A stretch of 64,000 bases of DNA from Actinomycetota bacterium (GTDB lineage Bacteria; Actinomycetota; UBA4738; JBBDHU01). The notes under the pieces are model-generated. The model saw only the letters and a program-made list of their open reading frames with translations. It searched no databases and was not told the DNA's origin. The stretch spans positions 116,469 through 180,468 of the forward strand of contig JBBDIK010000012.1 of NCBI GenBank assembly GCA_040880465.1, written 5' to 3'. This document shows positions 22,677 to 27,516 of this stretch, one piece after another; within the stretch, counting starts at the first letter, position 1; the number at the start of each line of letters is the position of its first letter. Made by a program: the position numbers and the translations under genes.

Positions 22677-24656
22677 ATGAAGCAGCGCTACGCGCGGCTG
22701 ACGGAGCCCATGGTCCGTGACAACGGATCCCTGCGCCAGGCGAGCTGGGAGGAGGCCCTCACCCGGGCCGCCGAAGGGTTCTCCGTCGCGCAGGCGAAGG
22801 GACCGCAGGCGCTCGGTGTGTTCAGCTGCTCCAAGGCCTCGAACGAGATGAACTTCCTCGCCGGGAAGTTCGCCCGTCAGGTCATGGGCACGAACAACAT
22901 CGATAGCTGCAACCGCACCTGACACGCTCCCAGCGTCGTCGGTCTGGCGACGGTATTCGGAGCAGGTGGCGGGACAAGTTCATACGCGGAGATCGAAGAC
23001 ACGGACCTCATCGTGATGTGGGGGTCGAACGCGCGCGAAACGCATCCGATCTTCTTCCACCATGTCCTGAAGGGCATCAACAACGGCGCCAAGATGTACG
23101 CGGTCGACCCGCGCCGTACGTCCTCGGCCGAGTGGGCCGATGTCTGGCTCGGCATCGACGTGGGCACCGACATCGCCCTCTCGAACGCCGTCGCCCGGGA
23201 GATCATCGCGGCGGATCTGCACCACAAGGAGTTCATCGAACGCGGCACGACCGGCTTCGCCGAGTACGCGGCCAGTGTCGAGGAGTGGACCCTCGAGCGC
23301 GGTGAGGCCGAGACCGGTGTCCCGGCCGACGTCATCCGCGACCTCGCACACACGATGGGCCTCGCCGACCGCGTTCAGATCTGCTGGACGCTCGGGATAA
23401 CCGAACATCACAACGCGGTGGACAACGTCCTCAGTCTGATCAACCTCGCGCTCCTCACCGGGAACGTCGGTCGATACGGCTGCGGCGTCAACCCGCTCCG
23501 AGGACAGAACAACGTCCAGGGCGGTGGTGACATGGGCGCGATCCCGAACAAGCTCTCCGGGTTCCAGGACATAGAGGAGAACCACGAGGCTCGTCGGCGG
23601 TTCGAGTCGGCGTGGGACTGCACGATCCAGCCGAAGTACGGGTGGCACCTCACGCAGATGTTCGAGGCGATGGCGCGCAAGGAGTTGACGCACCTGTACG
23701 TGATCGGAGAGAACCCCGCTCAGTCCGAGGCCGATGCGAATCACGCCAACCACGTCCTGGAGGGGCTGGAATTCATGGCCGTCCAGGACATCTTCTTGAC
23801 GCGAACCGCGGAGATGGCGGATGTCGTGTTCCCGGCATCGGCTTCTTGGTGCGAGTCCGAGGGGACCGTCACCAATTCGGAACGCCGCGTTCAGCGCGTG
23901 CGGAAGGCGCTCGACCCCCCGGGGAACGCGCGCGACGATATGCAGATCATCGCTGATCTCGCGGGGCGGCTCGGCCGCACGTGGGACTACGGTGCCGAGC
24001 CGCGCGAGATGGCCGAGAACGTCTGGAACGAACTGCGCTCCCTCTCGCCCATGCACACCGGCATGAGCTACGAGCGTCTGGAAACCGAAGGCGGCTTGCA
24101 GTGGCCGTGCACGAGCGATGACGACCCCGGGGCCACCTTCCTGCACGGACGCCTTTGGTCGACGGATCCCGACGAACGCGGCATCCCGGCGCCGTTCAGC
24201 GTGGTCCTCCACGAGTTGCCCGTCGACGAGCTGGATGATGATTTCCCGCTGCGTCTCACGACCGTGCGGAACCTCTCCGACTACAACACCGGGGTCCAGA
24301 CCAGTGGCTACTCCTCGCCGCTCCGGCGTGACGAGGCGCTCTGCGTCTCGCCCGAGGACGGCGAGCGGTACCAGGTCAAGGACGGTGAGGTGGTCAAGGT
24401 CAGTTCCCGGCGAGGGTCGCTCCAGGCGCCGGTTCGCTACGATCCCGCCCTGCGCCCGGGGCTCGTCTCGATGACCCTTCACTTCCCGGACGAAGTCGAG
24501 GTGAACGTGCTGACCATCGAAGCGACCGATCCGAAGTCCGGGACCGCGGAGTTCAAGGCGACGGCCGTGCGGATCGACAAGCTCGCCAACGGCTCCGGCA
24601 ACGGCCGTGGCGCCGGCGCGGGACCGGAAAAGAGCTCCGCCGGGGTGGACGCCTAA
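22677..24656 (+). CDS. fdhA: formate dehydrogenase catalytic (Mo/W-bisPGD) subunit lacking the N-terminal Fe4S4 domain; in-frame TGA at 22920-22922 read as selenocysteine
   Basis: ORFs 22671-22922 and 23013-24656 are in the same frame. NNIDSCNRT-TGA-HAPSVVGLATVFGAG aligns with the FdhF active site ...CARV-U-HGPSVAGL.... The remainder resembles molybdopterin oxidoreductase domains II-IV. Confidence 0.85.
22934..22952 (+). promoter_or_regulatory. SECIS-like hairpin
   Basis: CGUCGUC-GGUCU-GGCGACG forms a 7-bp stem (one G-U pair) starting 11 nt after the UGA. The apical GGUCU resembles the E. coli fdhF SECIS loop. Confidence 0.6.
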
Positions 24657-24658
24657 AC

Positions 24659-26539: not shown

Positions 26540-27516
26540 GCCAGGCCGTCCCCCTCGCGCCGCCGAAGCGCCTGGTCGATATGGAGGTAGATGGCAAGCA
26601 GGTGCGGGTTCCCGAGGATCGGACCATCCTGGAGGCGCTCCGGGGCGAGGGCGTGGATACCCCGACCCTGTGCTACCTCGAGAACCTCACGCCGGTGAAC
26701 GTCTGCCGTGTATGCGTCGTGGAGGTCGAAGGCTCGCGAACGCTGGTTCCTTCGTGTTCGCGCAAGGTCGAACCGGGGATGGTCGTCAAGACGGACTCGG
26801 ACCGCGTCAAGCACTCACGCAAGCTCGTCCTCGAACTGCTGTCCTCATCGGTCGATATGTCCCTGGTCGATGAGGACACCCAGCGGTGGATGTCCGAGTA
26901 CGAGGCCGAGCCGGAGAAGTTCGGGCCCGCGGCAGCGCCGGCAGAGGCCGGCGAACGGGACGCGGCGCATCCCGGGCACCATCACGAGCCGGATGGGTCG
27001 GTTGTCGCGACCGTCGCGCAGCCGGTCAAGATCGACAACGACCTCTACGTCCGTGACTACGCTAAGTGCATCCTCTGCTACAAGTGCGTCGAGGCATGTG
27101 GGGTCGACGCCCAGAACACCTTCGCGATCGCGGTTGCGGGGCGGGGGTTCGACGCGCGGATCTCGACGGAGTACGCGATCACGCTCCCCGAGTCAGCATG
27201 CGTGTACTGCGGGAACTGTATCGGCGTCTGTCCGACTAACGCGTTGATGTTCAACAGCGAGTACCAGATGCGGGAAGCGGGTACGTGGGACGAGTCGGAG
27301 CAGACCGTGTCACAGACCATCTGCCCGTACTGCGGGGTCGGATGCAACTTGGAGCTCCATGTCCAGGACAACCGGATCGTGAAGGTGACCTCGCCGATGG
27401 ACCACGCCATCACCAACGGTCATCTGTGCATCAAGGGACGCTTCGGGTGGGAGTTCGTGCAGGAGCCCGCAGCCGTCGGGAAGCAGGACGCAGCCGCCGG
27501 GGGGTCCGACGCCTAG
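26536..27516 (+). CDS. Fe-S subunit: 2Fe-2S ferredoxin + 2x[4Fe-4S] + the Fe4S4 domain normally at the N-terminus of the formate dehydrogenase catalytic subunit
   Basis: The GTG start overlaps the previous stop. Contains CYLENLTPVNVCRVCVVEV...VPSC (2Fe-2S), CILCYKCVEAC and CVYCGNCIGVCP (ferredoxin-type), then ICPYCGVGCNLELHV...GHLCIKGRFGWEFV (Mo-enzyme Fe4S4 domain), after which the protein ends. Confidence 0.85.
   Translation: MSQAVPLAPPKRLVDMEVDGKQVRVPEDRTILEALRGEGVDTPTLCYLENLTPVNVCRVCVVEVEGSRTLVPSCSRKVEPGMVVKTDSDRVKHSRKLVLELLSSSVDMSLVDEDTQRWMSEYEAEPEKFGPAAAPAEAGERDAAHPGHHHEPDGSVVATVAQPVKIDNDLYVRDYAKCILCYKCVEACGVDAQNTFAIAVAGRGFDARISTEYAITLPESACVYCGNCIGVCPTNALMFNSEYQMREAGTWDESEQTVSQTICPYCGVGCNLELHVQDNRIVKVTSPMDHAITNGHLCIKGRFGWEFVQEPAAVGKQDAAAGGSDA

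Follow-up and report, generated by a model that had tools for sequence, protein, structure and literature searches.

In formate dehydrogenases (FDHs) of the FdsA and FdhF kinds, the active-site metal and the first iron-sulfur cluster on the electron path lie on one polypeptide. Can the two be separated, and where would electrons then leave the pterin? The question is raised by a locus in a 64,000-nucleotide stretch of an Actinomycetota genome (contig JBBDIK010000012.1, positions 116,469 to 180,468 of the forward strand), referred to here as the window. Four closely spaced genes on the plus strand at 22677–28144 encode a 659-residue molybdopterin protein, a NuoE-NuoF fusion, an iron-sulfur (Fe-S) protein and a MobA-like protein. 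Very probably, these genes form one operon and specify a cytoplasmic, NAD(H)-linked, selenocysteine (Sec)-containing molybdenum or tungsten (Mo/W) FDH of the FdsABG/Fdh1AB kind, in which the alpha subunit consists of two chains.

The split of the alpha subunit is seen at the level of domains, profiles and pairwise alignments. The catalytic body (659 aa with Sec84; 22677–24656, plus strand) contains only the Molybdopterin (PF00384, 234 bits) and Molydop_binding (PF01568, 83.8 bits) domains and no Fe4S4 domain. The Fe-S subunit (326 aa with a GTG start; 26536–27516, plus strand) resembles the N-terminus of NuoG and HoxU, and in Pfam it consists of Fer2_4, a 4Fe-4S dicluster domain and Molybdop_Fe4S4. 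The last of these, at residues 257–309 (27304–27462), is the domain of the FS0 cluster and forms the C-terminal end of the protein. Its motif, CPYCGVGC...LCIKG, is of the CxxCxxxC...C type with Lys-Gly directly after the last Cys, and includes the conserved relay lysine. The NCBIfam profile for the FDH alpha subunit (TIGR01591, Fdh-alpha, 672 positions) is divided cleanly between the two proteins: positions 1–50 match residues 261–310 of the Fe-S protein and positions 51–672 match residues 5–633 of the body. Lacking positions 1–50, the body reaches a score of 622.9, below the cut-off of 666.25; the same 50 positions score 57.8 bits on the Fe-S protein. The FdsA chain of Rhodobacter capsulatus (6tg9_A) is divided in the same way, with residues 25–303 aligned to Fe-S residues 14–308 and residues 307–937 aligned to body residues 6–640. 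The cut site is a linker of about three residues ahead of the conserved RLTxP strand. Upstream of 22671 there is no in-frame coding sequence able to give the body an extra domain, and no other gene supplies the body with an Fe4S4 domain. The division at the Fe4S4-domain boundary, claimed in the original prediction from the letters of the DNA, is thereby confirmed.

The original prediction of the split starts the body at 22677 and makes no mention of Sec, although a separate remark by the same reader does. The 659 codons are a single frame only if the TGA at 22920–22922 is decoded as Sec. This codon lies at the position of the Mo/W ligand, in the motif CNRT-U-HAPSV. Directly downstream, a stem-loop resembling a selenocysteine insertion sequence (SECIS) occupies 22923–22968, with a lower stem that pairs 22923–22930 with 22959–22968 and an upper stem of 7 bp that pairs 22934–22940 with 22946–22952. 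Folding and covariation both identify it. When the 63 nt from the TGA are aligned for the window and 66 orthologous loci, the loop GGUCU is invariant and pair 18–30 is C-G in 50 sequences, G-C in 14 and unpaired in none. Taken over all cells of the stems, 90.4% are paired, compared with 30–67% when the 3' partner is slid. TGA stands at the ligand codon in all 66 orthologous loci where the motif search placed it, and also in all 13 body-carrying relatives within the order of the window's genome. Two marks of a bacterial selenoprotein are present, an in-frame UGA aligned with Cys or Sec and a SECIS hairpin after it. A scan of 22000–28500 against Rfam at E ≤ 1 returned no family for the hairpin. 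In the operons of cultured actinomycetes, Cys replaces Sec at this position (CNRTCHAPS).

Upstream of FS0, the Fe-S subunit keeps the ligands for three more clusters, all conserved across the orthologs: four Cys for a 2Fe-2S cluster and two CxxCxxCxxxC(P) motifs for two 4Fe-4S clusters. This is the NuoG-like set that leads to FS0 in FdsABG and Fdh1AB. One cluster of those enzymes is missing. The ligands H117, C121, C124 and C130 of FdsA (H-x3-C-x2-C-x5-C), which bind the His/Cys3 cluster, have no aligned Cys or His in the Fe-S protein, and PF10588 gives no match; the absence of this cluster was already noted before and agrees with our alignments. In the R. capsulatus enzyme (RcFDH) the corresponding cluster A4 is located at the dimer interface, outside the path from bis-MGD (bis-molybdopterin guanine dinucleotide) to flavin mononucleotide (FMN) (PMC7171172). 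Because A4 is off the path there, its loss predicts that electrons are not exchanged between protomers and should not break the wire from Mo to FMN. In place of this cluster lies a cluster-less linker with the stretch ERD..HPGHHHEPDG (26929–27024; Fe-S residues ~132–163). What was first described as a His-rich insert lies in a segment of conserved length, ~104 residues in most Sec-type orthologs. Within the Sec-type clade the ERD..PGHHH stretch shows partial conservation from phylum to phylum, and in the Cys-type actinomycete clade it is precisely deleted. The loop is modeled as disordered, with a predicted local distance difference test score (pLDDT) below 50 at residues 145–163.

Between the two halves of the alpha subunit, as the original prediction had placed it, sits the gene for the NuoE-NuoF fusion (NuoEF; 626 aa; 24659–26539, plus strand). 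Pfam, NCBIfam and structure matches assign to it a thioredoxin-like 2Fe-2S domain, an FMN/NAD(H) site, an SLBB domain and an N3-type 4Fe-4S cluster (PF01512, PF10589 and PF01257), which is the flavin module expected of FdsABG and Fdh1AB. Its matches among solved structures are 6vw7_B, 7e5z_B (316 bits) and 6tg9_B. At 26363–26398 the window has a perfect (AACGGGTCC)x4 repeat, translated as (NGS)4 within the 4Fe-4S region of NuoF; the (NGS)4 stretch is absent from the corresponding protein of the outgroup described below.

The body itself carries the signature of an FDH. Metal-dependent FDHs are classed by the metal ligand with its adjoining His and by a conserved Arg (PMC8808070). Here they are found in CNRT-U-HAPS and, further on in the same chain, in PLRGQNNVQG; both body domains of the FDH fold are present as well, and only FS0 is missing from the chain. 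The direction of catalysis is probably that of formate oxidation, with NAD+ as the likely acceptor. Formate would be oxidized at the Sec-ligated bis-pyranopterin guanine dinucleotide (bis-PGD) metal site on the body. Electrons would then pass from one protein to another, to FS0, a [4Fe-4S] cluster that lies with the relay lysine in the C-terminal domain of the Fe-S subunit. From there they would run through that subunit's two ferredoxin-type 4Fe-4S clusters and its 2Fe-2S cluster and arrive at the NuoE-NuoF fusion, with its 4Fe-4S cluster and its FMN, for the reduction of NAD+. As the active site and FS0 are on different chains, transfer from the pterin to the first cluster should take place across a non-covalent interface.

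The same arrangement is found far beyond the window. Close relatives of the stand-alone Fe-S protein number in the thousands, and all 120 matches listed are 306–392 aa long, with the same Pfam set and no Molybdopterin domain. We surveyed 80 loci from species-representative genomes, 67 of which are informative in having at least 4 kb upstream of the Fe-S gene. The order body, NuoEF, Fe-S on one strand occurs in 66 of these 67, in at least six phyla (Actinomycetota, Acidobacteriota, Chloroflexota, Thermomicrobiota, Vulcanimicrobiota and Planctomycetota) and in megabase contigs and isolate genomes. Orthologs are 60–80% identical and keep all cluster ligands. Among 26 genomes of the window's order, which are related and do not count as 26 independent observations, a close Fe-S ortholog and a close body ortholog occur in the same 13, always on one contig, and neither occurs in the other 13. 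In five Chloroflexia loci (L083, L085, L087, L093 and L094), 0.6–2.6 kb are inserted between the body and NuoEF genes, so the operon is interrupted in that lineage; in L083 (2606–5010) the insert has minus-strand open reading frames of 241, 175 and 227 aa. The operon with Cys, and with fdhD downstream, is directly confirmed in Thermopolyspora flexuosa and Streptomyces samsunensis. Body orthologs that lack an Fe4S4 domain have further entries in Saccharopolyspora (by database protein names), Nonomuraea, Nocardiopsis and other genera. Some names derived from JGI read 'NAD-dependent formate dehydrogenase catalytic subunit', 'flavoprotein subunit' and 'iron-sulfur protein', and the three-subunit composition is implicit in such annotation. 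NCBI names are generic ('2Fe-2S iron-sulfur cluster-binding protein', 'molybdopterin-dependent oxidoreductase').

The two chains together can be modeled as one complete alpha subunit. The Fe-S protein and the body were joined end to end, and the alignment supplied fused homologs together with unpaired rows of orthologs. The joined model has a mean pLDDT of 88.6 and a predicted template modeling (TM) score of 0.89. Low confidence is limited to the His-rich loop, the artificial junction (312–322) and the two termini. The model superposes on the alpha subunits of RaFDH, MeFDH1 and RcFDH over ~970 columns with TM scores of 0.85–0.92 (TMq/TMt 0.86/0.89 for 9ktl_A, 0.85/0.92 for 7vw6_A and 0.86/0.89 for 6tg9_A), showing that the two predicted chains make up the complete fold of FdsA and Fdh1A. 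When AlphaFold was given the joined halves as a single sequence, the model was of no use (pLDDT 34.8).

The junctions between the genes are tight. The stop codon of the body, TAA at 24654–24656, is followed by a 2-nt gap and the GTG start of NuoE-NuoF at 24659. NuoE-NuoF and the Fe-S gene overlap in GTGA at 26536–26539, and the start codon of the Fe-S gene is therefore GTG. The 2-nt and 4-nt junctions originally reported are accurate; this start codon and one further spacing can be added, as the MobA-like cofactor nucleotidyltransferase gene (27536–28144, plus strand; Pfam and NCBIfam) starts 19 nt past the Fe-S stop and probably closes the operon. Scans for promoters and terminators turned up nothing that resembles either inside the operon block, which is weakly in favor of a single transcript. 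Two further genes in the neighborhood fit an FDH. The sulfurtransferase FdhD, an FDH maturation factor, is encoded at 19937–20815 on the plus strand (318 bits against a cut-off of 269). A formate-tetrahydrofolate ligase at 18133–19803 on the minus strand adds a context of C1 metabolism and is syntenic in many actinobacterial loci.

Several points weigh against this assignment. Complex formation is something we infer for every member of the family, and sequence does not settle Mo against W or NAD against NADP. The joined model speaks for compatibility of the halves and not for independent docking, since the covalent join is artificial and fused homologs guided the prediction; transfer across a non-covalent interface is compatible with it. 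Two metagenome-assembled genomes (MAGs) of Chthonomonadaceae have a lone Fe-S ortholog, 79–81% identical (L012, 7001–7945; L016, 7001–7927), and neither a NuoEF gene nor a body gene lies close to it. A body ortholog is missing from the whole L016 genome, where the best match is 36% identical and part of an 870-aa open frame. The lone gene may be an orphan remnant or a binning error, or it may point to a second partner. Finally, selA, selB and tRNA-Sec were not detected in the window's own MAG, which measures 1.74 Mb and is 86.5% complete. It does have selD (367 bits), with neither selA nor selB in its neighborhood. In the same order, selA is above cut-off in 23 of 25 genomes. A genome of the same genus (2.4 Mb) has selA and selB side by side (505 and 331 bits), in a 20-kb region that has no counterpart in the window's assembly. 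As this smaller MAG lacks that region, gene absences in it need caution, and its Sec machinery is most likely located in the unassembled part. A 94-nt 'tRNA-Val(cac)' called by ARAGORN (contig C3, 162357–162450) was considered as a hidden tRNA-Sec; it lies in an apparent coding sequence and is probably a false positive.

Could the split be an error of assembly or annotation, or a sign of decaying genes? The window does come from an incomplete MAG, and gene callers break the body at the TGA. Yet 66 of 67 independent loci share one and the same architecture, orthologs are 60–80% identical and keep every cluster ligand, and the TGA is always the same codon followed by a covarying SECIS, so that this explanation has practically no weight. 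A rearranged contig, which the original prediction had itself named as a risk, is excluded by the dozens of independent assemblies that share the layout. It is also very improbable that NuoEF and the Fe-S protein make an independent HoxEFU-like diaphorase for some other partner, leaving a body that has no FS0 or a different electron donor or acceptor. The lone Chthonomonadaceae gene can be read in this way, and HoxU is among the best family matches of the Fe-S protein. Elsewhere, however, the linkage and phyletic co-occurrence of the Fe-S gene with the body are strict (66 of 67 loci; the same 13 of 26 genomes), which also disposes of the earlier concern that the Fe-S gene might belong to a different complex, and the joined halves model as a complete alpha fold. 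Moreover, we know of no role for a Molybdop_Fe4S4 domain away from a MopB body.

Two other alternatives concern what the enzyme does. An electron-bifurcating complex like HylABC-FdhF2, or an acceptor other than NAD+ (ferredoxin or NADP+), is unlikely, if slightly less so than a separate diaphorase. The best solved matches of the NuoF part include the Bfu-family subunits NfnB and HydB. Bfu-type NuoF subunits carry extra ferredoxin domains, whereas Pfam finds no ferredoxin domain in the window's NuoEF protein beyond those of Fdh1B and FdsBG, and the protein ends soon after the last Cys of its NADH_4Fe-4S domain. The overall composition is that of the non-bifurcating Fdh1B and FdsBG. As for a molybdoenzyme with a substrate other than formate or CO2, the TIGR01591 score just under the cut-off is what speaks for it. 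The shortfall is about the contribution of the 50 profile positions found on the Fe-S protein, though, and with the Sec-His and Arg signature, the FdhD and formate-tetrahydrofolate ligase neighbors, and FDHs as all the best structural and sequence matches, such a substrate is very hard to credit. An NAD(H)-linked FDH with a two-chain alpha subunit accounts for the locus best, and the interpretation offered in the original prediction is supported overall.

How did this layout arise? Relatives of the body were searched among 1.84 billion representatives of 50%-identity clusters. Identity to the body is 52% or more in its own orthologous cluster and at most ~43% in all other relatives. Full-length coverage is seen in 90 representatives, among which 41 belong to the FdsA type, 39 to the FdhF type, nine to longer fusions and one is split-like. 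The split-like protein, P0350 (620 aa), is a second MopB body that begins just past the place of FS0; it lacks both a Cys and a Sec as ligand (NNIDTAARFYYAPG) and is placed close to the split clade in the tree, and it may be another, non-catalytic lineage without FS0. In the maximum-likelihood tree of the body, split forms of the Sec and the Cys type group together in a single clade, with a Shimodaira–Hasegawa-like approximate likelihood ratio (SH-aLRT) of 100 and a stem length of 0.55, and the Cys-type actinomycete proteins are a monophyletic subclade inside it. The nearest outgroup is P0282, a fused protein of ~900 aa (support 96); the fused P0291 and the split-like P0350 fall in the next grouping, in which the branching is unresolved. 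The operons of P0282 and P0291 have two genes, with a NuoE/F-type gene directly upstream of the fused alpha. The N-terminus of P0282 is colinear with the Fe-S protein and also without the His/Cys3 motif. Ranking the N-termini of fused relatives against the Fe-S protein gave no clear nearest relative, with many at 140–170 bits, so the argument on origin rests on the body tree and the outgroup operons. The order EF, FeS-FS0, body in the outgroup becomes body, EF, FeS-FS0 in the split clade. This is a rotation (cyclic permutation) that retains the EF-FeS junction, and the halves of the alpha subunit are therefore not in reversed order, as had been proposed. The layout would have arisen once from a two-gene [NuoEF][fused alpha] operon by fission at the linker between FS0 and body and rotation of the segments. 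The simplest account of the rotation would be that the operon was duplicated in tandem and then lost its outer pieces, and we propose this as the route.

In characterized MopB enzymes that have FS0, the cluster is, to our knowledge, always part of the catalytic chain. On balance, we favor the view that this is the first recognized family of MopB (Mo/W-bisPGD) enzymes with FS0 and the relay lysine in trans, created by cyclic permutation of the [NuoEF][alpha] operon. As a conserved exception, it would mean that electrons can make their first transfer step from one subunit to another. The split may allow the Sec-containing, cofactor-loaded body to mature alone, with bis-PGD insertion and sulfuration by FdhD, and then to dock or exchange onto a pre-assembled diaphorase. 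For the engineering of modular formate dehydrogenases or CO2 reductases, it also provides a natural place to divide the chain. Soil Actinomycetota, Acidobacteriota and Chloroflexota carry the family in abundance, nearly always as a selenoprotein, which is of relevance to the turnover of formate and the use of selenium in aerobic soils. With its genes fragmented or generically named by pipelines, the enzyme is likely to be under-counted in metabolic reconstructions. The Cys-type orthologs in culturable Thermopolyspora, Streptomyces and Saccharopolyspora (the last by database protein names) make the idea of FS0 in trans directly testable. Searches of openly accessible full texts aimed at the split, together with papers that include a 2026 review of metal-dependent FDHs, turned up no description of an FDH or other MopB enzyme with FS0 on a separate polypeptide. 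The split layout is widespread in soil bacteria and apparently undescribed.

Among known systems, formylmethanofuran dehydrogenase (FwdB/FwdD) gives an earlier case of a MopB enzyme whose catalytic chain is made as two polypeptides, with the cut between domains. There, however, the separate piece is the C-terminal Molydop_binding domain, and the catalytic chain keeps FS0. Another enzyme again is the mycobacterial Sec-FDH, which belongs to the FDH-O type and is 1064 aa long. The P0282 and P0291 systems of uncultured bacteria are like the window's operon in that EF adjoins alpha, and P0282 shares the lack of the His/Cys3 cluster. They differ in having a single-polypeptide alpha (a fused FdhA) with a Cys ligand, at most ~43% identical to the body; the N-terminus of P0282 is 33% identical to the Fe-S protein. 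FdsABG(D) of R. capsulatus and Cupriavidus necator (6TG9 and 6TGA) has the same chain of bis-MGD, FS0, two 4Fe-4S, 2Fe-2S, 4Fe-4S and FMN, an FdsA colinear with the two proteins of the window over residues 25–303 and 307–937, and a maturase of the FdhD/FdsC type in common with it. In contrast, FdsA is a single chain that has a Cys ligand and carries A4 at the dimer interface, FdsG and FdsB are not fused to each other, and no FdsD was found here. FDH1 of Methylorubrum (M.) extorquens (Fdh1A/Fdh1B; 7E5Z, 7VW6 and 8J83) is likewise cytoplasmic and NAD-linked, with a NuoE-NuoF fusion as its beta subunit. Its alpha subunit has the NuoG-like N-terminus, FS0 and MopB body in the same succession as the joined halves. 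FDH1 contains W, with Cys as the ligand where the window has Sec, and retains the His/Cys3 cluster. Its alpha subunit is one chain, while in the window it is two polypeptides cut between FS0 and the body and encoded in the order body, EF, FeS.

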